64,000 nucleotides of DNA from an uncultured Pseudomonadota bacterium. Its GTDB lineage: Bacteria; Oederibacteriota; Muellerivitia; Muellerivitales; Muellerivitaceae. The number at the start of each line of letters is the position of its first letter. Position 1 is the stretch's first letter. The stretch lies in contig CAWJKT010000004.1 in NCBI GenBank assembly GCA_963843375.1, forward strand, positions 1 through 64,000, in the 5' to 3' direction. The notes beneath the pieces are model-generated. The model was not told the DNA's origin. It saw nothing but the letters and a program-made list of their open reading frames with translations, and searched no databases. Shown here one piece after another: positions 32,836-61,476 of this stretch. The translations under genes and the position numbers were made by a program.

Positions 32836-32910
32836 GGGCGGTTAGCTCAGCGGTAGAGCACTGCTTTCACACGGCAGGGGTCACAGGTTCAAGCCCTGTA
32901 CCGCCCACCA
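32836..32910 (+). tRNA. tRNA-Val (CAC), integration target
   Basis: GGGCGGT acceptor pairs with ACCGCCC, anticodon arm CTGCT-TTCACAC-GGCAG, encoded CCA. Confidence 0.97.
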
Positions 32911-32991
32911 TCCAGAAACATGGTTAAAACAAGGGCTTAGGAAGTTTCCTAAGTTCCTGTTTCTTTCTGCATGTTCGGATTTTGGTCATTT

Positions 32992-33010
32992 TGGGACAGT
33001 TCTGGGACAG
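32992..33010 (+). repeat. Paired TGGGACAG direct repeats, putative integrase arm-type sites at attL
   Basis: TGGGACAG-TTC-TGGGACAG; same motif begins each 171-173 bp junction. Confidence 0.7.
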
Positions 33011-33055
33011 CACCTGTGGCGCGTGCGTGTGCGACGCCAACACGGAGACTGTCCT

Positions 33056-34039
33056 GTGGCGACAATCGAAAAACGCGGCAAGTTCTGGCGGGCGAAAATC
33101 CGTCGCCAGGGCGCCCCTGCACAAACCCGGACTTTTGAAAACAAGACCGTGGCCCAGCAATGGGCCCGTAGCATCGAGACCGAGCTCGATAGCGGCATTG
33201 TCATCGATCGGCGCCCGGCCGAGCGCACCACCCTGGCCGAGGTCCTGGAGCGCTATCGGCGCGATGTAACGCCGACCAAGCGCGGCGCGCGGGACGAGAA
33301 CCTGCGCCTCAAGGCCATGGCGCTGCGCCCCTTCGCCCGCATCCGCATGGCCGCGCTCACGAGCTCCTACCTCGCCGCCTACCGTGATCAACGGCTCAAG
33401 GTGGTGTCCGGGGCGACCGTGAATCGCGAGTTCAACGTCCTCTCCCACGCCATCGATACGTCCCGTCGGGAATGGGATATCCATATCCCATTCAACCCCT
33501 GCACCCTGGTGCGGAGACCGCCCCAAGGACGCCCACGGAGCCGACGGCTACAGGGCGATGAGGAACAGCGGCTGCTCGCTCACTGCCGGGCTGCGCGCAA
33601 TCCCTGGCTCGTGCATTTCGTGATACTTGCGCTCGAAACGGGCATGCGGCGCGGAGAGCTGCTGTCCCTAGAATGGGTCAACGTCGACCTGAATAGGCGC
33701 ACAGCGCTGTTGCCCATCACCAAGAACGGCGACAGCCGAGGCGTACCGCTGTCCAGCCGGGCCCTGACTGTCCTGCGCTCGCTTCCGCCCTCGACCACGG
33801 GCCGCGTCTTCGGGGATCTCACCGCTGATGCTGTCAAGCTCTCGTTTCGGCGGGCGACGGTTCGGGCCAGTATCACGGGCCTGCGATTCCATGATCTGCG
33901 CCACGAGGCGACCAGTCGCCTTTTCGAGAAGGGCTTGAACGTCATGGAGGTCGCCTCCGTGACGGGGCATAAGACCCTGCAGATGCTCAAGCGCTATACC
34001 CACCTGAATGCGGTGGATCTTGCCCCCCGGCTCGGTTGA
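33056..34039 (+). CDS. Tyrosine recombinase/integrase, Rci/HP1-like
   Basis: GGAG RBS, N-terminal arm-binding-like KRGKFWRAKIRR, TGMRRGEL, TKNG, HDLRH, TGHK..MLKRY: full R-K-H-R-H-Y set. Confidence 0.95.
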   Translation: MATIEKRGKFWRAKIRRQGAPAQTRTFENKTVAQQWARSIETELDSGIVIDRRPAERTTLAEVLERYRRDVTPTKRGARDENLRLKAMALRPFARIRMAALTSSYLAAYRDQRLKVVSGATVNREFNVLSHAIDTSRREWDIHIPFNPCTLVRRPPQGRPRSRRLQGDEEQRLLAHCRAARNPWLVHFVILALETGMRRGELLSLEWVNVDLNRRTALLPITKNGDSRGVPLSSRALTVLRSLPPSTTGRVFGDLTADAVKLSFRRATVRASITGLRFHDLRHEATSRLFEKGLNVMEVASVTGHKTLQMLKRYTHLNAVDLAPRLG

Positions 34040-34073
34040 GCCGGTGACAATAACCCAAGCGTTAGGTTACACT

Positions 34074-34322
34074 ATGCCGACGATTCTGCGATTTCGGGGT
34101 TTGCGGGTGATGATTTACACCCATGATCATTGGCCACCCCATGTGCACGTCATTGCGCCCGAAGCACAGGCCAAGATTGCACTGGGTGAAGCACGACAAC
34201 GTCCTCATGTGCTAGTCAATGATGGACTAACACCGCGACAACTGAACTGGGCCCTGACTGAGATTGATCGCAATCGCGAATTGCTGCTGACGCGCTGGAG
34301 AGAAATTTATGGCGACGCCTGA
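34074..34322 (+). CDS. DUF4160 family protein (predicted toxin)
   Basis: MPTILR..IYTHDHWPPHVHV; overlaps DUF2442 gene. Confidence 0.85.
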   Translation: MPTILRFRGLRVMIYTHDHWPPHVHVIAPEAQAKIALGEARQRPHVLVNDGLTPRQLNWALTEIDRNRELLLTRWREIYGDA

Positions 34323-34755
34323 GTGGATCAAGAAGGAGCTGCGCGCAAACTTCGCCAAGGCATCCCGTGCCGGGCGACTGGCTGCGAAGACGGAACCACG
34401 TGCAGCGACCGCGGCGTATCGCGGCCGAGAGCAAGCCCTGCACGTAGAGCTCACGAACGGCGCCAAATTCATCATCCCGGTGAAGCTCATTCCGGAGCTG
34501 CAGAAAGCATCGGTCCGAGATATTTGCAAGGTGGAAGTACTTGGCCGGGGTGGTGGGCTCCATTGGGAGACACTGGATGTGGACATCAGTGTTCCGGGGC
34601 TCATAGCCTCCGTCTTCGAAGGACCGACGTGGCTTGCTGAACTCGGGCGCGTCGGCGGTCAACGGTCCTCAGCCGCAAAAGCGGCAGCGGCACGGAAGAA
34701 CGGACGCAAGGGTGGCCGCCCGCGCCTACGAGATTCTGCGGATTCCAGGGCATAG
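34309..34755 (+). CDS. DUF2442 family protein (predicted antitoxin)
   Basis: GLHWETLDVDISVPGL, C-terminal SAAKAAAARKNGRKGGRPR. Confidence 0.85.
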   Translation: MATPEWIKKELRANFAKASRAGRLAAKTEPRAATAAYRGREQALHVELTNGAKFIIPVKLIPELQKASVRDICKVEVLGRGGGLHWETLDVDISVPGLIASVFEGPTWLAELGRVGGQRSSAAKAAAARKNGRKGGRPRLRDSADSRA

Positions 34756-34804
34756 ACCCGACGAACCTGTGACCACCTCCAGCTACTTGTCGCAACCCCA
34801 CGCG

Positions 34805-35093: not shown

Positions 35094-36119
35094 TCAGCGA
35101 GTTCGCTCCGGCACTCGAACCGGATCTGGCTTCTTTGGAGCAATTCGGTCTTTGAACGACTGGACGATCTGGTAGGCCAGCTGTTCCTTGTCCGTCATGA
35201 CGGGGGGCATCTCCTGCACAAATTTTCGCACATCGGCCACCAGCTTCGTTTCGCCCTGGCGATCGAGAGTCTTTGCAACTGCGAGCCACCCTGCGACCAC
35301 CGCCTTGCGGGTTTCGACAAGCTTCGCGCGCCCGGGCTCGTTAAACACCGACCCATTGGCGATCCGCTGGGCGACCTCGTCTACCTTCTGGCGCATGGCC
35401 CAGGAGGCTCCGCGCCGCTGTGCCCTCAGCATAGGGTCAAGTGTCTTTCTGCGGTTGGCACCGCGCACCGCTCGCGGAGTCGCGTTGGCGGGAACGCCCT
35501 GCTCCCGCATGCACTGTGCGAAATCCTCTCGCCACAGGCGCAGGGTGCGCTTGTCGATGCGGAGCCGACGACCGTGCAGGCCCTCGGACTTAACGACGAG
35601 GTGGGTATGGGGATGGGGTTGGTCCGTATGCAGCACCATGGCATAGCGGTGTTCTAAGCCGAACCGCTCACGCGCGAACTTCCTCGCCGCCGCCAGGACC
35701 TTCTCGGGTGGCGTCGGTGTCGGCATGGACAGCACAATGTGATGCACCAATTTCACCGATCTGGGCGGTGGCTTGCCTGATCGCGCACGGCGGTACTGAC
35801 CTGATGATAAATCCAGGTGCCAATCGTCTATCAGGCTCTCAAGGCTCTCCCTCCCCTTCAGGGACTCGCCGCCGTCTGTTTCCACCGGCTGCACACCGTT
35901 GCGGCTGATGTATTTTAGGTGCGCGCTGACCGCCCCGAGGTTCGTCGCTCCGCCAGTCACTTTCACCATGACCTCCGGTACCCTGCTGACGGTCCGGGCG
36001 ACCTGGGAGACATGGCTGGGCGCCAGGTGGTCTCTGGATTGGGGGCGGGGCCGTGCCGCACTGAAGATGTCGAGCCAGGGTTCGGCGTCAGGCCGAATCT
36101 GGACGAGTCGCTTACCCAT
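35094..36119 (-). CDS. MOBP / VirD2-like relaxase
   Basis: PEVMVKVTG, HLKYISR catalytic Tyr, HIVLS, HTDQPHPHTH HUH motif. Confidence 0.9.
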   Translation of the reverse strand: MGKRLVQIRPDAEPWLDIFSAARPRPQSRDHLAPSHVSQVARTVSRVPEVMVKVTGGATNLGAVSAHLKYISRNGVQPVETDGGESLKGRESLESLIDDWHLDLSSGQYRRARSGKPPPRSVKLVHHIVLSMPTPTPPEKVLAAARKFARERFGLEHRYAMVLHTDQPHPHTHLVVKSEGLHGRRLRIDKRTLRLWREDFAQCMREQGVPANATPRAVRGANRRKTLDPMLRAQRRGASWAMRQKVDEVAQRIANGSVFNEPGRAKLVETRKAVVAGWLAVAKTLDRQGETKLVADVRKFVQEMPPVMTDKEQLAYQIVQSFKDRIAPKKPDPVRVPERTR

Positions 36120-36666
36120 AGTTGGTCTCCCAGGTAATGAGCGCGGCGCGAGTGAAGTCGCGCGTGGCCTGCTCAAGGCCCTTGATGGCGGCTCCCATAC
36201 TGCTAAGCTCATGCTGTAGTTCGGTCGGCAACTGACCCGTCGCCAGCGTGTTTCGAGCGAGTTGGTGCGTCACACGAACTGAAACAGCCAGCACCGCAAC
36301 GGACCCTTTGAGGGCCTGGAGCTCCTGCTTCATCAAGGGCGGCCCCCCGGCCACATGGGCCCTGACGAGCCCGGCGATATAGTTGGACGCGGCCGTTCCC
36401 CGATTCGAGGCGCGCCAGCCAATGGCCTGCCGGTCTCCCGGTCGCAACCGGATGGTGATTCGGTCGGTGGCCGGTTCAGTGACCACCTTGGCGAGCAACG
36501 GTGGCCCGTACCGCGCCAGTTCGAGATAGGTGCGGATGGCGAGTATGGCGAGCTGGGATTCGGACAAGCCGCGCGCCTTCGCCAATTCCCCGAAGCGTTT
36601 CTTTTCATCCGGCGTCGGTCGCGCCGTGATTGAAATGAAGCGCCGTTTGCGCAGCTGGGGAGTCAT
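36112..36666 (-). CDS. MobC-like relaxosome accessory protein (tandem RHH)
   Basis: ITARPT..EKKRF..LAKARGLSES and ITIRLRPGD RHH-like motifs; between oriT and relaxase. Confidence 0.7.
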   Translation of the reverse strand: MTPQLRKRRFISITARPTPDEKKRFGELAKARGLSESQLAILAIRTYLELARYGPPLLAKVVTEPATDRITIRLRPGDRQAIGWRASNRGTAASNYIAGLVRAHVAGGPPLMKQELQALKGSVAVLAVSVRVTHQLARNTLATGQLPTELQHELSSMGAAIKGLEQATRDFTRAALITWETNYG

Positions 36667-36680
36667 GGCGCGCCCCGCCC

Positions 36681-36716
36681 GTGTGCCGCACAACGCGGAC
36701 ACCTCGCTATCCTGCC
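36681..36716 (+). other. Putative oriT with RP4-type nic site
   Basis: Imperfect IR GTGT(G)CCGC/GCGGACAC followed by TATCCTGC at 36708-36715 (YATCCTG/Y). Confidence 0.75.
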
Positions 36717-39567: not shown

Positions 39568-40431
39568 TCATCGTGTCACCCAAGGCAACTGTTCGTAGTA
39601 CTGCAGGACCGCGGAGTAGGCGCTCGTGAAGTCAGGCAATTGGCTTGCGATTTCGTCTTGCAGCAAATCGTAGTCCTTCTCCGACCGGCGTCGGACTTCA
39701 GGGTCTGAAATGGACTGCTGAGTGGCACTGAGACCGCGGGCCACGCATTTCGCGCGAATCGCTTGGAGCACGCTTTGCTGGAACTCGGGGCCTTGTACTT
39801 CAGGTCGAGAGAGCAGTCGATACAGATCATAGACGTTTTGCCTACGGTCACGGTGTCGCACTGGTTGCTGAAGCATGGCTCGGTATTTCTCGGCCATTAG
39901 ATCAGTTAGGGCGGATGCCTGAACGCTGCCTCCTCCAGGTACCGGGACCAACTCAATGGCAGTTATGACTTCGTTGTAGCTCAGATCCAGCGCGACGGTG
40001 CTTGAGGAACGACCTCGCAATAGAGATCGATGACGTGGACCGTCAGCCTTTGGGGCGTAGCCGATTCGGATCTTGAGGGTCTGCCAGTTTCGACCTTCTC
40101 CCGGAGGACGAAGTTCCTGGCTTTGGATTCGGCAATCCAATCCATAGTCCAGTTCTTCTACAAGTTGCTGGAGGGCTATTCGCAATTCTTCGATTACGCC
40201 ATCGACGGCGACTTCGCGCGTGCTTTCCTTCACGGAGAAGTCGATATCGCGAGTGAAGCGGTCACCATTGTATTCAAGGGCCAAGAGAATACCGCCCTTT
40301 AACACAACCAACTTGGGGAGGCGCGGTGCTTTTGAGACTGCAGCTATGACGGTATGCACGGCCATTCGCAGTTCCCGCGTGGCTACATCCGGCGTGTTGC
40401 TGACCCATGCCTCGAGGACTTTCGCCTCCAC
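39568..40431 (-). CDS. AbiEii/AbiGii nucleotidyltransferase toxin
   Basis: VLKGG..RFTRDIDF, AEKYRAM, YDL. Confidence 0.88.
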   Translation of the reverse strand: MEAKVLEAWVSNTPDVATRELRMAVHTVIAAVSKAPRLPKLVVLKGGILLALEYNGDRFTRDIDFSVKESTREVAVDGVIEELRIALQQLVEELDYGLDCRIQSQELRPPGEGRNWQTLKIRIGYAPKADGPRHRSLLRGRSSSTVALDLSYNEVITAIELVPVPGGGSVQASALTDLMAEKYRAMLQQPVRHRDRRQNVYDLYRLLSRPEVQGPEFQQSVLQAIRAKCVARGLSATQQSISDPEVRRRSEKDYDLLQDEIASQLPDFTSAYSAVLQYYEQLPWVTR

Positions 40432-40437
40432 CTGACG

Positions 40438-41349
40438 CTAATCCGAATTCAGCGAAAGGCACCACTTCTCAGAGTATGTGGAGCTGTAAGGTTGATTGGG
40501 CACCAGCTTGCGCGAGCCACCGCGCTTTGCGTGCCGCCGCCATTCCGCGAAGGATGGGGAACTGAGACCGCATCGCTCTTCAAGCACGTACCCCGCCCGC
40601 ACTTTGTCAATGTCCGTGCCGTGCTGATCGACTTCGGCGATTATCAACGATAAGTACTCACGGGCATGTGCTTCATATGTATCAATCACATGCTGGATTC
40701 CCCCGCACAGGTCTGCGTCTCTTAGCATATCCAAGAAGGTTCGCCCGAGCGTGGAAACACGGATTCCATGGGGCTCCAATTTCTTGAATGCCCCGTGGTG
40801 ACTACTCCGCGCGAAATGCACCGGCTGCCCCAAGATCTTTTCGAATTTCGAACGCCTCAGTGTCGGGAATCCGGCCTCCACGTACGCTTGGGTATCCGCC
40901 CCAAGATCCTTCTCCATCTGCTCCATTGCAAATCCGCGCCACTGCCGAGGTGCGGGTGATGACGCGAATATCGTATGCGGTATGCGATCAGTCAAACCAT
41001 GAATCGCCATAGCGCTGAGATGCGATAGGTAAGCAAATGGGTCCGCAACACACAGTAGGTCGTGCGCTTCGGGGTCGGTCGTGCCAAGGAGAGTATAGAG
41101 AGATCCGGCCGGAAACCCGCGGACCGGACGAATGACGCCGTGGGCGTCGAGGAAGTTCAGTACCTCGACGAAATGCCGTCGCTCTGGTTCTGGCTTACGA
41201 ACCTCAAGGCGCCTGCCATTAATTCCGCCGGCTCGGTAGACGCCGAAAATCTTCTTACCCAATTCGTACGCGGTAATGGCGCGAGCCTTGAGATCGGAGA
41301 GGGCGAGCGAAGCCGCTTGGGGGAGAGAAATGGTGGATCTGGATGTCAT
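40438..41349 (-). CDS. AbiEi-type antitoxin / transcriptional regulator
   Basis: PFAYLSHLSAMAIHGLTDRIP, RTFLDML..CGG; upstream of AbiEii. Confidence 0.8.
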   Translation of the reverse strand: MTSRSTISLPQAASLALSDLKARAITAYELGKKIFGVYRAGGINGRRLEVRKPEPERRHFVEVLNFLDAHGVIRPVRGFPAGSLYTLLGTTDPEAHDLLCVADPFAYLSHLSAMAIHGLTDRIPHTIFASSPAPRQWRGFAMEQMEKDLGADTQAYVEAGFPTLRRSKFEKILGQPVHFARSSHHGAFKKLEPHGIRVSTLGRTFLDMLRDADLCGGIQHVIDTYEAHAREYLSLIIAEVDQHGTDIDKVRAGYVLEERCGLSSPSFAEWRRHAKRGGSRKLVPNQPYSSTYSEKWCLSLNSD

Positions 41350-43591: not shown

Positions 43592-43603
43592 AATCTTTTT
43601 GGC

Positions 43604-43638
43604 GACCCCTGCTCTCGGACGGCAGGGTCGGCTCACCG
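43604..43638 (+). repeat. Site B copy 1
   Basis: GACCCCTGCT-CTCGGAC-GGCAGGGTCGGCTCACCG. Confidence 0.85.
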
Positions 43639-50892: not shown

Positions 50893-50964
50893 AGCGCGCG
50901 TCTTCGTCGCAGCAGAGCCGACGTTCTTAGCCGATGATTTTGGTTCAAGAGCCATCTTTGTCGC

Positions 50965-51135
50965 TGGGACAATTTGGGACAGTCAGCTCGTGACGCCGAA
51001 TGACATCGAATTACATCGCGTGACGCCAAGTGACTGTTGCGCTTGGCCCACGCCTCGCATATGGTTGATCTGTAAGGCCCCGACCACCGTTTCACACGGC
51101 AGGGGTCACAGGTTCAAGCCCTGTACCGCCCACCA
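50965..51135 (+). repeat. att junction copy 2 (tRNA part 51090-51135)
   Basis: Direct sequence comparison. Confidence 0.95.
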
Positions 51136-51426
51136 TAAAAAATCCCTTGATTGTCAGGTAATTGCCGCGCAATTGGGGCAGCATAGGCCCGCCTCGGTTT
51201 TGGCCGTACGGACACCAGTACGAATTTTTTCGGGCAATTCGTAGAGTTCCGCGCCCCAAAATTGAGCGAGCCAGTGGCGCCAATGCGGACGCGCTCACCG
51301 TCCCCACGGGGACCCATGAACTCGCGCGCACGTCCCTGCCTAGAGATCGATCGATTCGGTTTCGATTCTCGCGCAAGCGAGAAGCCCGCCCAGAGGCGAC
51401 CCGAGGGGCGAAATTAGTTCGCCAAT

Positions 51427-52617: not shown

Positions 52618-52822
52618 GGGGCGATATTATGCATCTATTACGGAGTTTACAAGAAAACCCTAAACTCACTAATATCCGTACCTTCGACTACCGAGCGTAA
52701 CCTACGTCTTCTCTGTTGCGCATAGTAGTTAAACGGGCGCCCCGGCGTGCAGGCGGCGCCCGATGCAGACGGGCGCAAAACCGAGATCCTTATCAGTTAC
52801 TGCTCATTATGGTTTGCCTCGG

Positions 52823-52993
52823 TGGGACAATCTGGGACAGCCAGCCGATGACGCCAAATGACCTAGAATTACGTCGCGTGACGCTAAGTGACTGTTGCTC
52901 TTGGCACTCCCCTCGCATATCGTTGATTGGTAACGCCCTGACCACCGTTTCACACGGCAGGGGTCACAGGTTCAAGCCCTGTACCGCCCACCA
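52823..52993 (+). repeat. att junction copy 3 (tRNA part 52948-52993)
   Basis: Direct sequence comparison. Confidence 0.95.
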
Positions 52994-53119
52994 TAGATTC
53001 AAGCGCTTATAGGCGCTTCTTCATAGCTCTTCACGCTCTTCGATCGAATTTGGGACAGTCTGCCGCACATGCCGCAGACGATTCGAACGGCCATGGACAG
53101 TCGCAAGGGATGATGGGCA

Positions 53120-53530
53120 GTGATTCGGACCCCGGTACCAAGGTGGATCAGCAACGAATTGTGCCGTAACTTTGCCAGGGCTTCGCGCGCCGGCCAGCGA
53201 GCCGCCATGCAAGAGCCCAGAGCTGCGACCGCGCGGTACCAATCTCGCATCGGCGCACTTGAACTTCAGCTGACGAGCGGAGTCACGCTGACAATTCCCA
53301 TCCGGCTGATCCCGGAACTCAGGCGCGTTGCGGCACGCGATATCCGTGCTGTCGAAGTCCTCGGCCGCGGAGGCGGCTTGCACTGGGAGCGACCCAACGT
53401 CGATTTGAGCGTTCCAGGGCTTGTTGCCTTCGTTCTGCGACTCGAGCAAACGGCAGACCGCGACCAGGTGTTGATTTGCCGCGACCCACAGTCGTCGCGG
53501 CTCAGCGGTCGCTCGCGCGGCCTTCTATAA
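53120..53530 (+). pseudogene. Orphan DUF2442 gene, paralog of 34309-34755, altered C-terminus, no DUF4160 partner
   Basis: WI..EL..NFARASRAG, EPRAATA, VEVLGRGGGLHWE..VD.SVPGL shared with 34309-34755. Confidence 0.7.
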
Positions 53531-54946
53531 CCCCAAGCGACGCCGCAGGTTGGTGAACACCGTCGAGTCCGGTGGGACGGGCATCATGGAGCTGTCGCGC
53601 TCGAACTGCGCAATGAGGGCCTCAACCATTTCACGCCCATCAGCGTTTCCAACCGCCTCGAGCGGCGTTTTGTTATTGAGGGCTGGCAATGCCACCTCCG
53701 GCCAGTTCTCATAGTGACGACGTTGGAGTTGCTCAAGCTTTGCGCGCACCTCGGGCTGCTTAAGAAGCTCTTCCTGTTCGGCATTACGGGGCGTGAATCC
53801 GGCGCCAGCCCCAGGGAGGCTTGCCGCGCGCGTGACATCGACGGGGTGCTTGCGCGTTCTCAAATAGCGCGCTTTCAAACCGGAAGTTTTCTCCAGTAGC
53901 TTGCGGAACGTGCTCGCACGGGCCGCGGAATTGACCTCCACTTTCAGTTTACCCTCCACAATGTGAAGTTGTCCGAGCACGACTGTTTCAAGTTCGTGCT
54001 TCGGATGGTTGTGCCGGATCCAGGGGATCTGCGCCTCGATCACGGCACCCTTGGCACTGAACTTCGCTTCCGCCAGAAGTTCCTCGCGGGTGCTGCCAAG
54101 CGCGAGGGAACTGAGTGCATCGAAGGCCGCTTGCGCGGAATCGATCTCGAAGTACAGCGTGCGCGGCTCGATCGGTTCACCATCGGTGTTGTGGAGCTTG
54201 GGCAGCGGTGGATTGAGGTAGGCGTCCGCGAGAGAGAAGTACAACGTGCGTAGCGCGAGGTCGCTCGAGTGCTCGAGCTCCGGACGGGTGCGGACCTGGA
54301 TTAGGTGGATCTTGTAGCTCGGGGGAAAACTGAAAGGGGCAAGACCCTCGACCATCGCGATCCCGGAGAGCGCTACGATCTGCCCGAAAATGATGTCGCC
54401 CCGGGCGAGTGTGGCTGAAGCCGAGCGTTCACGCACGTTGAACTTGGCGCAGGTCAGGACGTCTCGCGTGGTGAAGCCCACTCCGGGTTCGCATTCGCAG
54501 ATCTCATGGAAGCCAAAGGGTGCTATGAGGCAGGCTTCGAGATAGCGCTGCAGCAGTGGATGAAGGCGCCCGGCTCTGCGGTCGAGATAGGCGCGCGAGG
54601 GCGGGACAGCGTAGAGCGTCGCGTCGGAGATGACGTTGCCTTTGAGCTTCTGCGGCGACCAGACGTGGAAGAGCCATGCGAAGAAAAGCTCGGCGTTGGG
54701 CTCGCTTTGGACGAACTCCTCGCTCTTGCCCATCGTGAATTCGAACCATGCCTGCTGGATGGCGTCCACGCCGTAGCACTTCGCGATGAAGTGCAGCATG
54801 TCGCCCGCGTAGCCGTCGATGGCCGCGCGTACGCGTCGCCAGGTCTGTTCGCCGAGTTCGGCCACCGTGGCCGACTCTGAGAGACAACAATACTTGTACT
54901 TCTTGCCGCTGCCGCAAGGGCACGCATCGTTGCGTCCGGGCTTCAT
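53525..54946 (-). CDS. SEC-C motif protein with C-terminal MbcA/ParS-like motif
   Basis: GRNDACPCGSGKKYKYCC; W..VALPALNNKTPLEAV. Confidence 0.8.
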   Translation of the reverse strand: MKPGRNDACPCGSGKKYKYCCLSESATVAELGEQTWRRVRAAIDGYAGDMLHFIAKCYGVDAIQQAWFEFTMGKSEEFVQSEPNAELFFAWLFHVWSPQKLKGNVISDATLYAVPPSRAYLDRRAGRLHPLLQRYLEACLIAPFGFHEICECEPGVGFTTRDVLTCAKFNVRERSASATLARGDIIFGQIVALSGIAMVEGLAPFSFPPSYKIHLIQVRTRPELEHSSDLALRTLYFSLADAYLNPPLPKLHNTDGEPIEPRTLYFEIDSAQAAFDALSSLALGSTREELLAEAKFSAKGAVIEAQIPWIRHNHPKHELETVVLGQLHIVEGKLKVEVNSAARASTFRKLLEKTSGLKARYLRTRKHPVDVTRAASLPGAGAGFTPRNAEQEELLKQPEVRAKLEQLQRRHYENWPEVALPALNNKTPLEAVGNADGREMVEALIAQFERDSSMMPVPPDSTVFTNLRRRLGL

Positions 54947-55098
54947 GAGGGCATTGTGGCACGAGCAGCGGGCTTGGCGCGCGCAGCTCGCGCGGTGCGC
55001 AATGCGCCACAGAGCATGCCCGCCTTCGACCTCAGGGTTTGTGAGGGCGTTCCCGCCGAGTGATTGACAGCCACTGGGCAACTGGTAATACTATTGGT

Positions 55099-55335
55099 AT
55101 GAAAGTCGCCGTCTCCATACCCGACGAAGTCTTCAGCGAAGCCGAGGATCTGGCGAAACGGCTAAAGGCTTCGCGCAGCGAGATCTACAGCCGTGCACTC
55201 GGTGAGTTTCTGGGCCGGCATGCGCCCGATCGCGTGACGGCCGCCATGAACAACGTCATCGCCAACGTCGGCGAGAAATCCGAGGCCTTCAACCGGCGCG
55301 CGGCGCGCGGTGTGCTGCGGAAGGTGGAGTGGTAA
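55099..55335 (+). CDS. RHH antitoxin
   Basis: MKVAVSIPDEVF..SRSEIYSRAL; overlaps toxin gene. Confidence 0.85.
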   Translation: MKVAVSIPDEVFSEAEDLAKRLKASRSEIYSRALGEFLGRHAPDRVTAAMNNVIANVGEKSEAFNRRAARGVLRKVEW

Positions 55336-55673
55336 TCGAACAGGCGGAAGTTTGGTGGGCCGACCTCGATGAGCCCACTGGGTCCGAACCCGGATACCGC
55401 CGGCCCGTCGTCGTCGTCCAGGGCAACGCGCTTAACCGCAGTCGCATCGGCACCGCCGTGTGCGTTCCGCTGACCAGTAATCTCAGATGGGCCGATGCCC
55501 CCGGCAACGTCCTGTTGCCAAGTCACGAAACGGGGTTAGCGCAGGACTCGGTCGCAAACGTGTCGCTGATCGTCGCCCTGGACAAGCAGCAGCTCACCGA
55601 GCGCGTGCGCAAGATCCCACGCCGCCGATTTGAACTCATTCTCGCGGGAATCGATACGATCCTCGGGCGGTAG
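55329..55673 (+). CDS. PemK/MazF family toxin
   Basis: GSEPGYRRPVVVVQ..N, VPLTSN, DSVANVS. Confidence 0.92.
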   Translation: MVIEQAEVWWADLDEPTGSEPGYRRPVVVVQGNALNRSRIGTAVCVPLTSNLRWADAPGNVLLPSHETGLAQDSVANVSLIVALDKQQLTERVRKIPRRRFELILAGIDTILGR

Positions 55674-55679
55674 GCCGCC

Positions 55680-55844
55680 ATGAAAGCGAAAACGCGAGCT
55701 AAGTCGGAGCGACCTCAAAGCTTCACCGAAGGCATTGAACGGGCACTGCGGCGCGCTGCCAGAGATGCGCGCAAGACTGCTCGCATATACGGCACACCCC
55801 TTTACGTTTGGCAGAACGGCAAGGTGGTCGCCAAGAAACCATAA
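55680..55844 (+). CDS. 54-aa basic protein not in the ORF track
   Basis: Hand translation MKAKTRAKSERPQSFTEGIERALRRAARDARKTARIYGTPLYVWQNGKVVAKKP, 6 bp after toxin stop. Confidence 0.65.
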   Translation: MKAKTRAKSERPQSFTEGIERALRRAARDARKTARIYGTPLYVWQNGKVVAKKP

Positions 55845-55874
55845 AGACGACCCTACCCGTCACGGTTCGATCGC

Positions 55875-56045
55875 TGGGACAATCTGGGACAGTCAGACCA
55901 TGACGCCAAATGACATCGAATGACATCGCGTGACGCTAAGTGACTGTTGCGCTTGACCCTGCCCTCGCATATCGTTGATCTGTAAGGCCCTGACATCCGT
56001 TTCACACGGCAGGGGTCACAGGTTCAAGCCCTGTACCGCCCACCA
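55875..56045 (+). repeat. att junction copy 4 (tRNA part 56000-56045)
   Basis: Direct sequence comparison. Confidence 0.95.
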
Positions 56046-56125
56046 TCTAAAAGCCAGCTAGAACAATCACTTATAGTGTGACCCCGAGCTAGCTGAATTG
56101 GCCTTTCGGAGGGGTTTTGGGACAG

Positions 56126-56161
56126 TACCCAAATCGGGTATGATTCTACCCAATATGGGTA
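56126..56161. promoter_or_regulatory. Tandem palindromic operators at the MNT gene start
   Basis: TACCCAAATCGGGTA and TACCCAATATGGGTA. Confidence 0.6.
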
Positions 56162-56781
56162 AGAGCCAAGCCAAGCCCCGCCCCACTGATGGCGCAGCCA
56201 GTCTGGTGGATGCGCTGTTTTCGACAGTAAAGCAGCGCGTGCTGGGGCTGCTATTCGGCCAACCGGATCGCAGCTTCTATACCGGCGAACTCATCCACCT
56301 TGTCGATGCTGGATCCGGAGCGGTGCAGCGTGAGATTGCCCGCTTGGAAAAAAGCGGCCTTATCACCATGCGCCGCGTGGGAACTCAGAAGCACTACCAA
56401 GCGAATCCTGGTTCTCCACTTTTCGAAGAACTGCGAAGCATCACCCGCAAGACGGTGGGGCTTGCCGATCCACTGCGCGTTGCGTTGACCCCGCTGACGA
56501 AGCAGATCTCCGCCGCATTCGTCTATGGGTCAGTTGCAAAGCGTCGCGACGCCGCAGCCAGCGATATCGACTTGATGGTCTTGAGCGATAGCCTTGCGTA
56601 CAGTGAAATCTACAGCCTTCTTGAACCTGTAAGTGAACAACTGGGCCGCACCGTAAATCCGACGGTCTACAGCGCCGCGGATTGGTCCAAGCGCGCGCGA
56701 AACGGGAATGCCTTTGTGAGCCGAGTGCTGGCGCAACCCAAGCTATGGATCATCGGGTCCGAGAATGACCTCCCTCCTTGA
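56155..56781 (+). CDS. HTH + minimal nucleotidyltransferase (MNT) protein
   Basis: N-terminal winged HTH; FVYGSVAK..SDIDLMV. Confidence 0.88.
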   Translation: MGKSQAKPRPTDGAASLVDALFSTVKQRVLGLLFGQPDRSFYTGELIHLVDAGSGAVQREIARLEKSGLITMRRVGTQKHYQANPGSPLFEELRSITRKTVGLADPLRVALTPLTKQISAAFVYGSVAKRRDAAASDIDLMVLSDSLAYSEIYSLLEPVSEQLGRTVNPTVYSAADWSKRARNGNAFVSRVLAQPKLWIIGSENDLPP

Positions 56782-57187
56782 ACGGCTAACAGGTGCTGGA
56801 AAGCCCTGGGCGGCGGAGCCGCCGGACGCGAAGGAATTCGAGGGGCTCAAGCACTCAGCGCTCGCACGCTTGAAGGATGCGGCGAACCCAGTAAACGCGC
56901 TGGAGAGCCGCTTTGATCTCGCCTACAACGCCGCCCACGGACTGTGTTTGGCCGCACTCCGTCACAAAGGATTTCGGGCGCATCACCGTTACATCGTCTT
57001 TCAGGCGTTGCCACACGCTTTGGGATTAGGTCCGGAGGTCTGGCGCGTGCTCGACAAGAGTCATCAGATCCGCAATCTCGGAGAATATGAAGGCGATCTG
57101 AACATCGATGAGCGGCTTGTTGCCGATCTCATCACCGCGTGCCGTGTCGTCGCCGAAAAGGTCGAAGGTCTCCAACGCCCCCCGTGA
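56765..57187 (+). CDS. HEPN-like partner of MNT
   Basis: FDLAYNAAH, IRNLGEY (RNxxxY variant); overlaps MNT gene. Confidence 0.75.
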   Translation: MTSLLERLTGAGKPWAAEPPDAKEFEGLKHSALARLKDAANPVNALESRFDLAYNAAHGLCLAALRHKGFRAHHRYIVFQALPHALGLGPEVWRVLDKSHQIRNLGEYEGDLNIDERLVADLITACRVVAEKVEGLQRPP

Positions 57188-57232
57188 CTACTGAACTGAT
57201 CGCATCAGCCCTTCTCCGGTCGACAAGCTAAT

Positions 57233-57267
57233 GTTCCCTGCTCTCGGACGGCGGGGGCGGCTCATCC
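57233..57267 (+). repeat. Site B copy 3
   Basis: GTTCCCTGCT-CTCGGAC-GGCGGGGGCGGCTCATCC. Confidence 0.8.
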
Positions 57268-57337
57268 AAGGATGCCTCCTTTTCGGTGCTTGCCGGTGCC
57301 TGCTCTGGATATCTTGGCAGATTGCCGGCGATGGGTG

Positions 57338-58228
57338 TCATGGTGCTCTCAGCAGCGTCGGGGTGTTACGCGCACGCATCAGCTGCTCGACGTTCGGCGC
57401 GTTCAAGCCGTCGGACCGGCCTTTGAAATAGGTCCGTTGTGCAAGTTCCGGCGAAAAGTGCTCCGTCTCGGCAAAGCCGGCGGTGCGCAACATGGCCGCC
57501 ATCTCCTCGGGCGTGAAGAAGGTGGCAAAGTGGGCGCCGGTCGCGGTGGAGATTCGCTTGCCTGTCTCGATCATTTCGGGCGACGGCGGGACGAATGTCA
57601 GTACAAGCTCTGAGCCGGGTGCGAGGTGTGCGGCCCAATTCAACGTCGCGTCGATCGCTTCGCGCGTCAAATACTGGGTGACGCCGAGCCAAGACAGGAA
57701 CGCCCTCTCATCGGACCGAAACTTTGCGCCCGCAAGCGCAGTCTCAATCGACGTAGTCTCGAAGTCGCAAGCCGCGAAGCGTAGGTTCTTGGGCGCCTTG
57801 ATCCCGAGTTCGGCAAGGCGCTTACGCTTCCACTCTTGTGCGCGCGCGGTATCCACCTCGAAAACAGTAAGGTTGAGTGGAGTCGCCGCATGCCGAAGCG
57901 CAAAACTGTCGAGGCCGGCGCCGAGAATTACCTATTGCCTGATTCCGCGCTCGCGGGCGGCCTCGAGACAATCTTCCGTATAGCGGCTCCTAAGGGCCCA
58001 TGCGGCCGAGATGGCCTTGTTTCGGGTCGGCACTGGTACTCCAGGCATGGGCCCGCGTACGATGCCCTCGGTGACGCCCAACAATCGCGCGGCGAAATCG
58101 TCCTTGAATACCTTGGGTTCACCGTCCACTAATAGGTGACGGGCGCGCATGAGCGCTGCACCGACCGCCGTCATGTCAACGCCCTCGGGCGGCGACCAAA
58201 TGGGTTGCTCCATGTGCGTGAACATCAA
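57338..58228 (-). pseudogene. Class I SAM methyltransferase (LCM-like) with one in-frame TAG at 57932-57934
   Basis: RGIRQ*VILGAGLDSFA, SWLGVTQYL; both ORFs are in the same frame. Confidence 0.8.
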
Positions 58229-58271
58229 TAACTGCCCCAGTGAGCCAGCTGCTTCGCCTCGATGCGGGGAC

Positions 58272-58784
58272 TCAGCGCGTGCGCGCGATGACTTCGCGGA
58301 AACGAACCTCCTCCAGGCGCATCAGCGCATTGAGGCCGGGCATCCCCTCGGGGCCGAAGGTTCGCAGGTACGCCGGTAACAGCTGCGGCGTGGTGAACTC
58401 GACGAGCTGCGTTCCTTCGAGCCAAACGTTGATCACTTCGAACTGGCCATTGTCGCAGTGCCCGCTCGGCCAGCCTTCGCGGCGCGCGATTTCGTGGATG
58501 TGTTCCTCGGGCAGTTTGGCCATGAAGAGCCCATGGAAGCCGTTGCGCTCCGGTGCCGACTCCGCGTGCGGCATTTCCGTGTAAGCACCTGGGCCCGGCG
58601 CGTATGTGATGCCCCACGGCTCGAGCGAGATCATGGTGCCACGATCGTCGCCGCAACAAACGAAGAGCGCGCCTTTGTTGAACGGCGGAGATGGAGCCGC
58701 GACGACGATGGCGTCCAAGATCTTTGCCAAGACACGGGCCACGCGCTCGGGATCGTGTGCATTGAATGAAAGGTGATATAGCAT
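58272..58784 (-). CDS. VOC/glyoxalase-like protein
   Basis: HLSFNAHDPERVARVLA, IARREGW, FEVINVWLEG..LVEF. Confidence 0.65.
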   Translation of the reverse strand: MLYHLSFNAHDPERVARVLAKILDAIVVAAPSPPFNKGALFVCCGDDRGTMISLEPWGITYAPGPGAYTEMPHAESAPERNGFHGLFMAKLPEEHIHEIARREGWPSGHCDNGQFEVINVWLEGTQLVEFTTPQLLPAYLRTFGPEGMPGLNALMRLEEVRFREVIARTR

Positions 58785-58809
58785 CTCTTTCTCCCTGCTC
58801 GTTGCAGCC

Positions 58810-59433
58810 TCAGCGTATCTTCTGCGTCCGGCGGCGGAGGCCTTCGGCGAGCGCCGAGAGAGCCTGCTCGACGACAGCCGAGGCCTCGGCGGCATCCATC
58901 CCCCAGAACGTGCGCAGCATCTGCCACGAGGGAGCCGAATAGAGGACCTGCGCCGCGGCGGCGGCACGGTGCAAGATGCGCGCATCAAGCCCGGGCACGG
59001 CAGCGTCGACGCAGCGGAGCATCATCTTGCGGCGTGCGTCGTTCCCGCGCAGGCGCAGCCGCATACCCTGGCGCGACGACAACATCGCATCCACCATCGC
59101 AGTATTTGCCTCGAATCCGGCAAAGGACCTCTTCATGTTTGCCACGAGCTCAGCAAGCGTCTGCGCGTCGAACGTGCCCGGACCGGAGACGTGCTCCTCG
59201 TGCGACCACCAGAAGGCGTCCTCCAGATCCTCCTTCGTCGCGAAGTTGCGGTAGACCGTCCGCTCTTGTACCCCTGCGGCGTGCGCGACCGCGGCGAACG
59301 TGAGCTCCTTCCCCACGGCCACGAGATCGCTGCATGCGTCGAGAATGCGCTCCCTCGTGTCGGAGCGCTGCTGGTCGCGAAGCGGCGAGTGATAACTGCG
59401 CTTAACGGCGGCCCTAGCGCGCTTCGAATTCAT
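58810..59433 (-). CDS. TetR/AcrR family regulator
   Basis: RSYHSPLR..TRERILDA..AVAHAAGVQERTVYRNFATKEDL. Confidence 0.9.
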   Translation of the reverse strand: MNSKRARAAVKRSYHSPLRDQQRSDTRERILDACSDLVAVGKELTFAAVAHAAGVQERTVYRNFATKEDLEDAFWWSHEEHVSGPGTFDAQTLAELVANMKRSFAGFEANTAMVDAMLSSRQGMRLRLRGNDARRKMMLRCVDAAVPGLDARILHRAAAAAQVLYSAPSWQMLRTFWGMDAAEASAVVEQALSALAEGLRRRTQKIR

Positions 59434-59757
59434 GGCAGTAATAATGACATGAATTGGAGTGACAGGCAAGCGTGCGCTGCGTAGTCCTTCGCAGTTCGAG
59501 TGATCGACTGTGACCAACGTCCATTGCTTCTGGCCGAAGGTCGCCGTTTCAGGTCTACCGTTGGAACGACGCAAAGGTTGACTGAGAGTCGACCGGTAGC
59601 AGCCATCCTTGCCATTCGGCCCAGGCCCAACCGAATGACGGATTTCGGAAGACCCATCTGACAGCAGGCCGCCACCTTAAGGCCCGCCACCGAGGTCCTG
59701 GCCCTTTCCCTTCAAACAGTCTATTTAAACCCAACCGTGGTTAGGTTATTATAGTCT

Positions 59758-60006
59758 TTGCCAACGGTTCTTCGCTTCGGCCGTGTTCGAGTCATGATCT
59801 ACACGAACGATCATCGTCCCGCGCATGTCCACGTTTGGGAGGGCTCACGGCAGGCGGTGTTCAATTTGAACTGTCCAAGCGGACCGATCGAACTGCGGGA
59901 GAACTTTGGGTTTTCCTGGCCGGATGTAAACCGCTTGGCCAGATCGCTGAAAGTCCACGTGCAAACGTTGTGTGCAGCCTGGAGGACGATTCATGGCAAT
60001 TACTAA
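59758..60006 (+). CDS. DUF4160 family protein
   Basis: MPTVLR..IYTNDHRPAHVHV. Confidence 0.85.
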   Translation: MPTVLRFGRVRVMIYTNDHRPAHVHVWEGSRQAVFNLNCPSGPIELRENFGFSWPDVNRLARSLKVHVQTLCAAWRTIHGNY

Positions 60007-60406
60007 GGAGCAATTTAAGGCGGCAAACGAGCGCGGTGCGGCGGCGATCAGTCGCGGACCGATTGCGCGAGCGGCTCGCTATGATTCACGACGTGGTCTG
60101 ATCGTGATTACGCTCAACGGCGGTTGCGAGTTTGCCTTCCCGGTGGCGCTGGCCGAAGGGCTGGCAGGCGCGCCCCGATCCAAGTTGACGAAAATCAAGA
60201 TTAGCCCGAACGGGCTAGGTCTGCGTTGGCCGCTGCTGGATGCGGATTTGTATGTGCCAGGGCTCATAGAAGGCGCCTTCGGTTCACATCGGTGGATGCA
60301 ACAGATCGGCAAACTCGGTGGTGCGAGCCGCAGTTCGATCAAGGCGAAAGCTTCTCGCGAAAACGGGAAGCGCGGCGGGCGTCCCAAAGAAGGAGTAGCC
60401 GCTTAG
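59993..60406 (+). CDS. DUF2442 family protein
   Basis: GLRWPLLDADLYVPGL, KAKASRENGKRGGRPK. Confidence 0.85.
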   Translation: MAITKEQFKAANERGAAAISRGPIARAARYDSRRGLIVITLNGGCEFAFPVALAEGLAGAPRSKLTKIKISPNGLGLRWPLLDADLYVPGLIEGAFGSHRWMQQIGKLGGASRSSIKAKASRENGKRGGRPKEGVAA

Positions 60407-60515
60407 CGCATCGATTGGAATGAAACGCGCCCGTATGTCCTGCCCGTCAGCTTTGGAGCCATTTCCCAGCAGCCATAGTGGGTCACAACCGGTCCACGAG
60501 ATTTCGCGGGTCTTC

Positions 60516-60688
60516 TGGGACAATCTGGGACAGTCAGCCCATGACGCCGAATGACACAGAATTACGACGCGTGACGCCAAGTGACTGTTGCGAATGGCCC
60601 GCGCCCCTCGCATATCGTTGATCTGTAAGGCCCTGACAACCGTTTCACACGGCAGGGGTCACAGGTTCAAGCCCGGTACCGCCCACCA
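60516..60688 (+). repeat. att junction copy 5 (tRNA part 60643-60688, one mismatch), followed by an IHF consensus at 60689-60701
   Basis: Direct sequence comparison; TATCAACCGCTTA matches WATCAANNNNTTR. Confidence 0.95.
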
Positions 60689-60780
60689 TATCAACCGCTT
60701 ACGGTCTGCGTTGCCGGTGCCTTGCTTCAAGGGTCGTCGCGCTCTTGCTACGATGTGCTACAAGTGCTACCGTCGCGGCC

Positions 60781-61032
60781 ATGAAGAGCAGAGTCATCAC
60801 ACAGCGGGAGCTTCGCAATCAATCCGCAGCTGTGCTTCGCGAGGTGGAAGCGGGCCGAACGATTGTCGTGACACGCAACGGTACGCCCGTCGGGGAATTG
60901 CGGCCGATCCGCAGGCACCGCTTTGTGGCTCGCGCCGCCATTGCTGACGCAGCAGCGCGCGCACCTCGGATTGACGCCGGTCGCTTTCGTGCAGACTTGG
61001 ACGCAGTGATCAATCCGCATGTCGATGACTGA
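60781..61032 (+). CDS. Phd/YefM family antitoxin
   Basis: ITQRELRN..VLREVEAG..VVTRNGTPV; TGCTAC repeats upstream. Confidence 0.9.
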   Translation: MKSRVITQRELRNQSAAVLREVEAGRTIVVTRNGTPVGELRPIRRHRFVARAAIADAAARAPRIDAGRFRADLDAVINPHVDD

Positions 61033-61426
61033 ACCGACTCGCGGCGTTCTCGATACTTCAGTCGTGATCGATCACGATGCAATCGATCCCAGTCTGCTAC
61101 CGGACGAATCGGCGATTTCCGCCGTAACACTCGCAGAACTCGCCGCTGGTCCCCACGCTACCGAAAACAAGGATGAACGAGCTCGACGCCAGGACCGATT
61201 GCAGTGGGCTACTGCAACTTGGGATCCGCTGCCATTTGATGCGGAATCGGCTCGCATGTACGGCAGGATGTTCGCGGCTGCGCGAGCCGCAGGCCAGTCA
61301 AGCCGTACGCGCCTTGCAGACTTGCTCATTGCTTCCACAGCCGCTGCCAATGGACTGCCGGTTTACACGCGCAACCCTTCGGATTTTGAGGCGCTGAAGC
61401 GCATCCTGAAGATCATCAGCATCTAG
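61025..61426 (+). CDS. vapC: VapC / PIN-domain toxin
   Basis: VLDTSVVI, TLAEL, DLLIASTA, YTRNPSDF. Confidence 0.92.
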   Translation: MTEPTRGVLDTSVVIDHDAIDPSLLPDESAISAVTLAELAAGPHATENKDERARRQDRLQWATATWDPLPFDAESARMYGRMFAAARAAGQSSRTRLADLLIASTAAANGLPVYTRNPSDFEALKRILKIISI

Positions 61427-61441
61427 AGCGAATCGCCCTCC

Positions 61442-61476
61442 AAGCCCTGCTCTCGGACGGCAGAGTTGGCTCACCG
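61442..61476 (+). repeat. Site B copy 4
   Basis: AAGCCCTGCT-CTCGGAC-GGCAGAGTTGGCTCACCG. Confidence 0.8.

Follow-up and report, generated by a model that had tools for sequence, protein, structure and literature searches.

A Tandem Array of Integrase-Less Units behind tRNA-Val(CAC) in an Uncultured Soil Bacterium: A Probable Site-Specific Accretion Array

Introduction

How does a row of DNA units come to lie behind a single tRNA gene, each closed by a copy of the tRNA 3' part, when only the first of them encodes a recombinase? The question is raised by the tRNA-Val(CAC) gene of an uncultured Pseudomonadota bacterium (assembly GCA_963843375.1, contig CAWJKT010000004.1), of which positions 1 to 64,000 were analysed; this stretch of 64,000 nt from a 564-kb contig (G000:C4:1-64000) is called the window, and coordinates beyond it carry the prefix C4. 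The source genome is a metagenome-assembled genome (MAG) of 80% completeness and 4% contamination. Other MAGs are labelled G, soil metagenome contigs L, and units u. An earlier note, made from the letters of the window alone, had described an integron-like array. Following it up, we arrive at a site-specific accretion array, in which an integrative mobilisable element (IME) is followed by cassettes that resemble cis-mobilisable elements (CIMEs) and all are served by one lambda/HP1-type integrase family; we give this reading a probability of roughly 0.6.

Results

Anatomy and Extent of the Array

The tRNA-Val(CAC) gene was located by ARAGORN at 32836-32910 on the forward strand. A repeat finder combined with an exact search revealed exact copies of its 46-nt 3' part (32865-32910; hereafter the core) at 48051, 51090, 52948 and 56000, and a further copy with one mismatch at 60643. 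The spacings between the cores were 15186, 3039, 1858, 3052 and 4643 nt, so that the five positions and unit lengths given in the earlier note were reproduced exactly. Every core was found to be preceded by an arm with a sharp start at YGGGACAATYTGGGACAG, which extends over 137 nt up to the anticodon-loop sequence TTTCACAC and is thus longer than the initial estimate of about 125 bp. The arm copies share 81-98% identity, and sequence outside the junctions is unrelated. An all-against-all comparison of the units showed their cargo to be unrelated as well; the units hold from one to more than 15 genes, encoded on both strands.

The array had been drawn to end at 61476. A whole-genome search placed two further arm-plus-core junctions past the window, namely J6 at C4:68905-69078 (core at about 69033, with five differences that include several changes and one deletion) and J7 at C4:90404-90548 (core at about 90503, with two mismatches and a degenerate arm), in addition to an arm stub of 28 nt at C4:66378. 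Core mismatches increase outward over the seven junctions, from zero in each of the first four to one in the fifth, followed by the five differences of J6 and the two of J7 with its degenerate arm. Every core of the genome lies on the one 564-kb contig. In G101, the nearest relative with the same flanks, the last core directly precedes a homologue of C4:90551-91220, and position 90548 is therefore regarded as the true distal end. The region upstream of tRNA-Val is syntenic with G101 at 82-91% identity. As both flanks are conserved in G101, the array constitutes a 57.7-kb insert between tRNA-Val and the conserved distal flank.

The spacing of 15,186 bp reported for the first unit is correct, but the unit is composite: the element carrying the integrase and a relaxase (unit 1a) stops at a degenerate arm at 43538-43594, which is followed by a second junction type and by unit 1b. 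At least six integrase-less units lie downstream of the IME. With regard to their classification as CIMEs, units 1b-7 were found to contain no integration or transfer genes, the only transposase being of the IS256 type (C4:65000-66259), and to be bounded on both sides by arm-plus-core junctions with motifs that match the P' arm of the IME (a TGGGACA doublet).

A Pfam scan of the 42 open reading frames (ORFs) of the window yielded a single PF00589 recombinase, situated in unit 1a, and a tblastn search of the genome with the integrase left the interval 34040-91000 without a match at a threshold as permissive as E ≤ 10. The lone recombinase of the first unit and the small recombinase-free units with conserved ends, both described in the earlier note, are thereby borne out, with arm and core present at each unit; the integrase remnants in every unit that the note had named as speaking against its own proposal are missing from this interval.

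A second tRNA-Val(CAC) gene of quite different sequence is present on another contig of the genome (195405-195481); it may be a paralogue or belong to a contaminant contig.

Cassettes at Other Positions and in Other Genomes

Whole cassettes of the array were found at different positions in other genomes. Unit 3 and L042.u1 run collinearly from the base that follows the CCA up to the arm, with 1525 of 1589 positions identical (96.0%); upstream of the tRNA, the two chromosomes share only 83.8% identity. This cassette adjoins the tRNA in L042 and forms the fourth segment of the present array, with different neighbours on either side. Unit 4 shares 89.7% identity with L061.u1, again the first unit after the tRNA. 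Between the core and a second type of site, termed D6 and described below, unit 5a matches G101 at 1201 of 1219 positions (98.5%), with 109 of 125 positions (87.2%) identical in the J4 arm upstream of it. Unit 6a is 91.6% identical to its G101 counterpart, with homology stopping right after D6. What G101 shares with positions 43640-61480 is confined to the PDC-M05 pair, the Phd/PIN pair, the DUF4160/DUF2442 pair, part of MazE and a DUF2442 relative. Since cassettes sit elsewhere and G101 shares only parts of five modules, order and content are not fixed in relatives. This agrees with the variable content and order foreseen by the earlier note, with relocated cassettes being more alike than the chromosome flanks.

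A G+C-rich palindromic insertion of 72 nt at about 52729-52800, just before the unit 3 arm, is absent from the L042 cassette; it may represent a mobile hairpin element of small size.

The Integrase and Its Element

The integrase gene begins 146 nt past the CCA of the tRNA, with GTG at 33056 taken as its start because the homologues are 327 aa long. These homologues form more than 100 clusters at 60-91% identity, nearly all of them from soil metagenomes, and the few named ones belong to Steroidobacteraceae and Gemmatimonadales. The best match by sequence in the PDB was the catalytic domain of HP1 integrase (E 2.3e-11), in keeping with the HP1 type first proposed. An AlphaFold model based on 32 sequences (mean confidence score, pLDDT, 83.7) shows an N-terminal domain of three strands (residues 2-7, 10-15 and 23-27) and a helix (30-45), modelled at pLDDT 85-89, ahead of the core-binding and catalytic domains. 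Foldseek matched the model to the full-length structure of lambda Int (1z1b_A), the alignment covering 341 columns, and to the Tn1549 integrase at E 4.7e-10. The N-terminal three-strand-plus-helix domain has what we take to be the fold with which lambda-type integrases bind their arm sites; none of the arm-binding families in Pfam matched the integrase. Judged by its predicted structure, the enzyme (Int) is a lambda/HP1-type integrase with tyrosine recombinase core-binding and catalytic domains. It is not an IntI, as the integron integrase model TIGR02249 gives 23.1 bits where the cut-off is 265.

Unit 1a combines its own recombinase at the att site with a PF03432 relaxase and a NikA-like protein and is classified as an IME on these grounds. 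It also contains function-unassigned ORFs. No type IV secretion system or coupling-protein family was detected among the 42 window ORFs scanned, nor was an oriT identified. It is probably the whole 15.2-kb unit 1, in the extent first drawn, that can still excise.

Junction Architecture

Each junction of the tandem array, about 250 bp long, joins the P arm of the unit before it to the P' side of the unit after it, with the core in between. The heptamer TGGGACA occurs 17 times in the window, compared to 7.2 expected occurrences, and none of 100 shuffles reached this count; 14 of the 17 copies lie at att positions. Each of the five arms has a pair of them at its outer end, a further doublet lies in the P' arm of the IME (32992/33003), and single copies occur 57 and 72 nt past the CCA of units 4 and 5. 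When all arrays were collected, TGGGACA was present within 110 nt of the CCA in 24 of 53 distinct unit left ends, as opposed to 3 of 375 interior windows. The stretch of the arm that leads from the doublet to the core contains five helically phased RTGAY repeats, at a spacing of 10-11 nt, as well as a CTCGCATATCGTTGAT block. Repeats and block are kept in 63 arms from two host lineages, neither having been part of the search pattern. Most unit left ends open with a short palindrome directly after the CCA.

Such an architecture is that of the attP sites of lambda/HP1-type heterobivalent integrases. By its motif layout, each junction looks like a complete attP, with TGGGACA and RTGAY as putative arm-type protein-binding sites. 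The earlier note had likened the arm to an attC site. All seven arm strands analysed (7/7) folded no better than their shuffles, with z-scores from -0.13 to +1.65, and an Rfam search at E ≤ 1 matched the tRNA and no other RNA. Because the arms lack excess folding and contain repeats of a putative protein-binding type, the junction is interpreted as a duplex lambda-type attP and not as an attC.

Two side observations concern the junctions. In a second left-end class, comprising 5 of the 53 left ends, TGGGACA is replaced by two GTACGGCA repeats located 35-60 nt past the CCA; its members are unit 7 (C4:69079 onward), G103C38.u2, L020.u2, L054.u1 and L057.u3. Furthermore, the core-proximal 45 nt of every arm (GTTGATCTGTAAGGCCCTG..., e.g., 48010-48050) align with the D-arm region of the tRNA (GTTAGCTCAGCGGTAGAGCACTG). 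The junction may thus descend from a whole captured tRNA gene, although neither ARAGORN nor Rfam calls a tRNA there.

A Second Type of Site in the Array

The genome contains four copies of the D6 hairpin, CCCTGC-TCTCGGAC-GGCAGGG, at 43607, 49094, 57236 and 61445, all within the array, and the anticodon stem-loop of the tRNA matches it at 17 of 21 positions. Over all arrays, which amount to 381.6 kb, the pattern CCCTGC-N8-GGNAN was found 20 times on the array strand and three times on the other strand. The consensus derived for D6 is CCCTGC-TC-NNNN-AC-GGCAG, with which the anticodon arm, CACTGC-TT-TCAC-AC-GGCAG, also fits. In the D-type junction, an arm is followed by a loop-like TTTCACAC-GGCAGGAATC sequence and D6; such junctions were found at 43.6 kb of C4 and in G103/L051, L045, L055 and L057. 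Three units show the order core, one toxin-antitoxin (TA) operon, D6, with CCA-to-D6 distances of 997 nt for BrnTA, 1190 nt for the PDC-M05 pair and 756 nt for Phd/PIN.

In both of the two informative pairs, homology to G101 stopped right after D6, while the stretch of high identity started at the core; the recently exchanged TA modules, at 98.5% and 91.6% identity, are bounded by these two sites. As the homology ends directly after it, D6 is regarded as a recombination breakpoint. It is conceivable, if doubtful, that D6 is a second, heterospecific core-type site of the integrase, which would mimic the anticodon stem-loop of tRNA-Val with a variable spacer and make the array a two-site cassette system. 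The core/D6 layout would allow a module to be swapped without being lost by deletion. A core combined with a heterospecific second site is the layout of engineered recombinase-mediated cassette exchange.

Other identities of D6 were considered and rejected. A genome-wide repetitive extragenic palindrome does not agree with four copies that are all in the array, the only other matches being the tRNA itself and one chance match at four mismatches. A relic of tRNA-Pro(CGG) is not supported either, as the tRNA-Pro of the genome has a different anticodon arm and the D6 'loop' is not constant at position 33. An RNA hairpin was discarded since compensatory changes are lacking, the right half being variable and the left half invariant, and an intrinsic terminator since D6 is not followed by a T-run. 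A full-text literature search yielded no published description of a D6-like site or of this junction family.

Distribution in Relatives

Pattern scans of one genome per species revealed the junction family in three further MAGs of Steroidobacteraceae, whose contigs carry 2-3 copies each, and a scan of soil metagenomes added 33 further loci. The 136-nt arm as such was not found in 100 other genomes, of which 30 were of the same family and one of the same genus, the junction being found elsewhere by the pattern scans. G101 has at least eight cores on six contigs and encodes residues 1-108 of Int, at 97% identity; in G103, Int is 99% identical. In L061, an identical tRNA-Val is followed by three junctions with integrase-less units and no Int within 19.7 kb, and in L042 by one integrase-less unit. 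Arrays of a second lineage (L035, L057, L064 and L039) have cores of 89-91% and Int proteins of 68-80% identity.

For 19 units elsewhere, a Pfam scan of 74 ORFs showed the cargo to consist of BrnTA, CcdAB, MazF, PIN, Zeta, Fic, Gp49/HTH, DUF2442, AAA ATPases, regulators and enzymes. A recombinase or transposase was present in only two of them, L048.u1 with its own, different integrase, and L022.u1 with an IS66.

The integrase of L048.u1 (L048 9134-10303; 389 aa) lies at the far end of the unit, which has no arm of this family and is located between the tRNA and a decayed IME. This tRNA-Val is used by at least two integrase families. In G103, a cassette with DUF2442 as its first gene (G103:C47:1-442) directly follows tRNA-Val and is 77% identical to the start of unit 4, and Int lies on a different contig of this MAG. 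Either G103 has some unit other than the integrase-bearing one in first place, or it mixes two strains.

Feature List and Gene Content

Features are compiled in Table 1, in which gene content is based on Pfam, NCBIfam and PADLOC scans.

Table 1. Features of the tRNA-Val(CAC) array, in the order of the contig.
Feature	Position	Strand	Remarks
tRNA-Val(CAC)	32836..32910	+	attL/attB of the array; identity block with cores from 32865; anticodon loop TTTCACAC
P' arm of the integrase-bearing element	32911..33055	+	palindromic hairpin right after CCA; TGGGACA doublet at 32992 and 33003, before int
Tyrosine integrase, 327 aa, GTG 33056	33056..34039	+	predicted lambda/HP1-type
DUF4160/DUF2442 (DhiT/DhiA-like) toxin-antitoxin pair adjoining int	34008..34755	+	
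MobA/VirD2-type (MobP1-like) relaxase (35094-36212) and NikA-like accessory protein (36112-36702)	35094..36702	-	IME mobilisation module
AbiEii/AbiEi abortive-infection/TA pair	39568..41349	-	IME cargo
D-type junction, IME right end	43538..43635	+	degenerate arm; loop-like TTTCTCAC-GGCAGGAATC; D6 hairpin CCCTGC-TCTCGGAC-GGCAGGG (43607-43627)
Unit 1b, integrase-less	43636..47914	.	TetR (43660-44340, -); CAAX-protease-like protein (44344-45210, -); function-unassigned ORFs
Junction J1	47915..48096	+	arm with TGGGACA doublet 47925/47935 and five RTGAY repeats; exact core 48051-48096
Unit 2a	48097..49122	+	BrnT/BrnA TA (48365-48896); loop-like TTTCACAC-AGCCGGAATC; D6 (49094-49114)
Unit 2b	49123..50954	+	two function-unassigned ORFs, 49225-49728 and 49832-50758
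Junction J2	50955..51135	+	arm and exact core 51090-51135
Unit 3	51136..52818	-	one AAA_16 ATPase gene (51427-52617)
Junction J3	52819..52993	+	arm and exact core 52948-52993
Unit 4	52994..55864	.	left-end TGGGACA (53051); DUF2442 (53120-53530, +); SEC-C-motif protein (53525-55081, -); MazE-like/MazF (55060-55673, +)
Junction J4	55865..56045	+	arm and exact core 56000-56045
Unit 5a	56046..57264	+	nucleotidyltransferase/HEPN-like pair (PADLOC PDC-M05A/B; 56098-57187); D6 at end (57236-57256)
Unit 5b	57265..60505	.	LCM-methyltransferase fragment; TetR fragment; DUF4160 (59758-60006); DUF2442 (59972-60406)
Junction J5	60506..60688	+	arm and core 60643-60688, one mismatch
Unit 6a	60689..61473	+	Phd/PIN TA (60745-61426); D6 at end (61445-61465)
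Unit 6b, start	61474..64000	+	Gly/Tyr-rich OMP-like (outer-membrane-protein-like) protein; arylsulfotransferase
Unit 6 beyond the window			IS256-type transposase C4:65000-66259; DUF2442; then J6 68905-69078
Unit 7, 21.5 kb	C4:69079-90403 (= L011/L012)		sulfur-metabolism, RND efflux and cytochrome bd genes; CcdAB; then J7 90404-90548

Unit 7 is a metabolic island standing in the same rack as TA cassettes of 2 kb. It encodes TauE, a DsrE-like protein, a SoxA/TsdA-type cytochrome c, an RND efflux pump, a cytochrome bd oxidase, OsmC and a racemase, with CcdAB adjoining the arm. Just after the Phd/PIN operon, the ORF at 61918-62631 contains a Gly/Tyr-rich tandem repeat of the GGYGYG type with a period of 12 nt (repeats at 62362-62457) and gave a weak match to an outer-membrane beta-barrel. 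In unit 5b, the matches to an LCM methyltransferase (57338-57856) and a TetR regulator (58810-59574) are truncated; they may represent pseudogenes or frameshifts caused by sequencing errors.

Discussion

Proposed Mechanism and Points against It

The array has a regular anatomy of recombinase-free units with conserved ends, it belongs to a family-wide set of junctions, and its cassettes change position and genome. We infer that Int catalyses these changes: it would bridge arm and core sites and exchange strands in the anticodon loop. An insertion at the tRNA would bring along a new tRNA 3' part and displace the older one outward; under this proposal, the distal junctions would be older and more decayed because each insertion pushes the older 3' part away from the tRNA. 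The integrase-less units would act as CIMEs, which are either excised in trans by Int or leave together with the IME, and the relaxase would then pass them to other cells through a helper conjugation pore. TA and defence cargo would stabilise the array. Seen in this way, the array would be CIME accretion carried to an integron-like extreme, the site working like a gene-swapping rack. Accretion of CIMEs as such is known; the number and small size of the units, their complete attP-like ends, the relocation of single cassettes and D6 are unusual.

A number of observations weigh against this mechanism. No excisionase or recombination directionality factor was identified: the eight small ORFs of the IME contain no HTH_17/excisionase domain (Pfam, E ≤ 5), and 15 ORFs gave no PHROGs match, so that the Xis-like gene mentioned in the earlier note could not be recovered. 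The right arm of the IME is degenerate in this genome and devoid of TGGGACA; it is full-length in G103. G102 has three junctions and no close Int, its best match being 37% identical. L048.u2 has retained a P' arm and Int residues 1-89, followed by an internal deletion, and is a decayed element. In at least eight cassettes the first gene is a DUF2442 homologue of the one that follows int, which gives the impression that int was deleted. The Logan contigs of soil metagenomes, which have a depth of 2-7x and none of which bridges several junctions, showed neither excised circles nor empty sites nor split reads; stretches without coverage carry no weight here, and the genome itself is 80% complete. 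Circles of unit size, as anticipated earlier, therefore did not appear in these contigs, apart from one ambiguous joint: a contig of run X5 joins 60604 to 55962 and hence goes back by 4643, the length of unit 5, with a left side that comprises only 82 nt of arm and may be a variant arm.

The arms also behave differently from the cargo. The unit 3 arm is identical to its L042 counterpart at 107 of 125 positions (85.6%), in contrast to 96.0% in the body of the cassette. A model of 'cargo plus its own arm' is thus too simple, as arms are less alike than cargo in orthologous cassettes; they have either been converted by paralogues or are part of a resident scaffold. The idea that an arm travels with the cargo upstream of it was dropped after a nearest-neighbour test gave a mixed outcome, in that it held for the MazEF and CcdAB ends and failed for unit 3.

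Alternative Explanations

The array could be a graveyard of elements that each entered at the tRNA with an integrase of their own and later had int deleted; today the units would no longer move, and the junctions would owe their conservation to recent origin alone. The integrase stump of L048.u2, the DUF2442-first cassettes, the cassettes fused by deletion (L061.u2 and the stub at C4:66378) and the decayed distal junctions agree with such a history. It does not account for integrase-less units of this contig that are free of int remnants at E ≤ 10, for unit ends that are precise and conserved on both sides, or for whole cassettes elsewhere at 96.0% identity when the chromosome is at 83.8%. Integrase-less units directly at the tRNA and arm motifs kept over 63 copies in two lineages are likewise at odds with it. 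We consider a graveyard unlikely. The earlier note had argued that decay of whole islands could hardly explain the array; this holds for the units of the present contig, which lack int remnants, but not throughout, given the stump in L048 and the fused cassettes.

Homologous recombination would offer another route, with junctions of 180-250 bp and an identical core of 46 bp serving as portable homology for RecA after DNA uptake or conjugation. In three out of three cases (units 3, 5a and 6a), the left edge of the high-identity segment falls inside the 46-nt core; the arms look mosaic and are less alike than the cargo, as gene conversion predicts; and the stub at C4:66378 fits a deletion between the arm start and the TGGGACAG(C/T)CAGCC repeats of P'. 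At the right edges at D6, however, similarity extends over only about 20-35 nt, which is short for RecA, and neither the conserved arms with their phased repeats nor the origin of the first copies would be explained. As the sole cause, homologous recombination seems improbable to us; it can operate together with the integrase and need not replace it.

That strain variants of one tRNA-proximal island were concatenated during assembly via the shared repeat is highly improbable: the MAG with its 80% completeness and 4% contamination, the lack of a low-depth Logan contig spanning several junctions and the many different sequences after the core in the same soils would be compatible with an artefact, but independent contigs carry 2-4 junctions (three each in L025, L022 and L035, the tRNA plus three in L061, the tRNA plus two in L057), the single 564-kb contig accounts for all cores of the genome and leaves none on stray contigs, G101 shows synteny across the distal flank, and concatenation would not produce a mismatch gradient along the array.

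Relation to Known Systems

With chromosomal (sedentary) integrons, the accretion array at tRNA-Val shares the single integrase, the ordered recombinase-less cassettes with a conserved site, the many TA cassettes and the variable content. To our knowledge, integrons are usually treated as the only cassette-economy system of this kind. The present array differs from them in that the integrase is not IntI and is encoded on a mobile element, the arm does not fold like attC, and a tRNA takes the place of attI; moreover, the cassettes comprise several genes in both orientations and are presumably self-expressing. Composite staphylococcal cassette chromosome (SCC) islands at rlmH offer a further parallel, with ccr-less pseudo-SCC cassettes that have the same site repeats and lie in tandem with a recombinase-bearing element. 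SCC islands differ by their serine recombinases, their target in a protein gene and their short repeats without long arms.

The terms CIME and accretion were defined by Guedon et al., who treat CIMEs as decay products (PMC5704250). As summarised there from Pavlovic 2004 and Bellanger 2011, the integrative and conjugative elements of the ICESt1/ICESt3 type in Streptococcus thermophilus provide the closest vocabulary: a tyrosine-integrase element lies in tandem with att-keeping elements without integration or transfer genes, insertion occurs at the same target, and cis-mobilisation has been proposed (PMC5704250). In contrast to the one or two CIMEs of those elements, at least six integrase-less units are present here, many of them of 1.2-5 kb; both ends are conserved despite unrelated cargo, a D6 site is present, single cassettes are relocated, and only some units look decayed.

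The islands at ssrA of Dehalococcoides resemble the array in forming long tandem arrays downstream of one small-RNA gene, with direct repeats of its 3' end and strain-variable content; as reported, 16 of them have and 15 lack an integration module, the latter being proposed as CIMEs (PMC3146451). According to the same source, they rely on a serine (CcrB-like) recombinase, a 20-bp repeat with an adjacent 15-bp motif and a crossover in the T-loop of the tmRNA, and carry rdhA cargo (PMC3146451), whereas the array at tRNA-Val has a predicted lambda-type tyrosine integrase, attP-like junctions of about 250 bp, an anticodon-loop core, and TA and defence cargo. The tycheposons of Prochlorococcus are similar in being tRNA-targeting elements stacked in tandem with partial tRNAs between them, where newcomers push older elements outward (bioRxiv 10.1101/2020.12.28.424599). 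As described in that preprint, each tycheposon is defined by its own integrase, many have replication genes, and integrase-less material is seen as degenerated remnants without clear boundaries (bioRxiv 10.1101/2020.12.28.424599); units 1b-7, by comparison, have neither an integrase nor a replication module, and their ends are sharp and conserved.

In the Islander collection, 2083 of 3919 islands belong to class A, i.e., to anticodon-centred tRNA sites (PMC4383910). The array is akin to this class and to lambda/HP1 integrases in its HP1-like catalytic domain, the lambda-like three-domain fold of the model, the identity block that starts in the anticodon loop and reaches the 3' end, and the repeated motifs in both arms. 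By the rule set out in the Islander paper, tandem arrays are counted only when every member has an integrase, with four arrays of three or more members (PMC4383910). Because of this demand for an integrase per member, the present array would be missed.

Significance

Precedents exist, as both the accretion of CIMEs and the ssrA arrays of Dehalococcoides already include tandem members without an integrase. Should D6 act as a heterospecific core site, engineered cassette exchange would have a natural counterpart in it. If Int moves the units in trans, a lambda-type tRNA integrase would run an integron-like cassette economy. Island finders that require one integrase per island would then miss much mobile DNA, including 'decayed remnants' behind tRNA genes, and soil Steroidobacteraceae would share a pool of small TA, defence and metabolic modules, held at one chromosomal rack.

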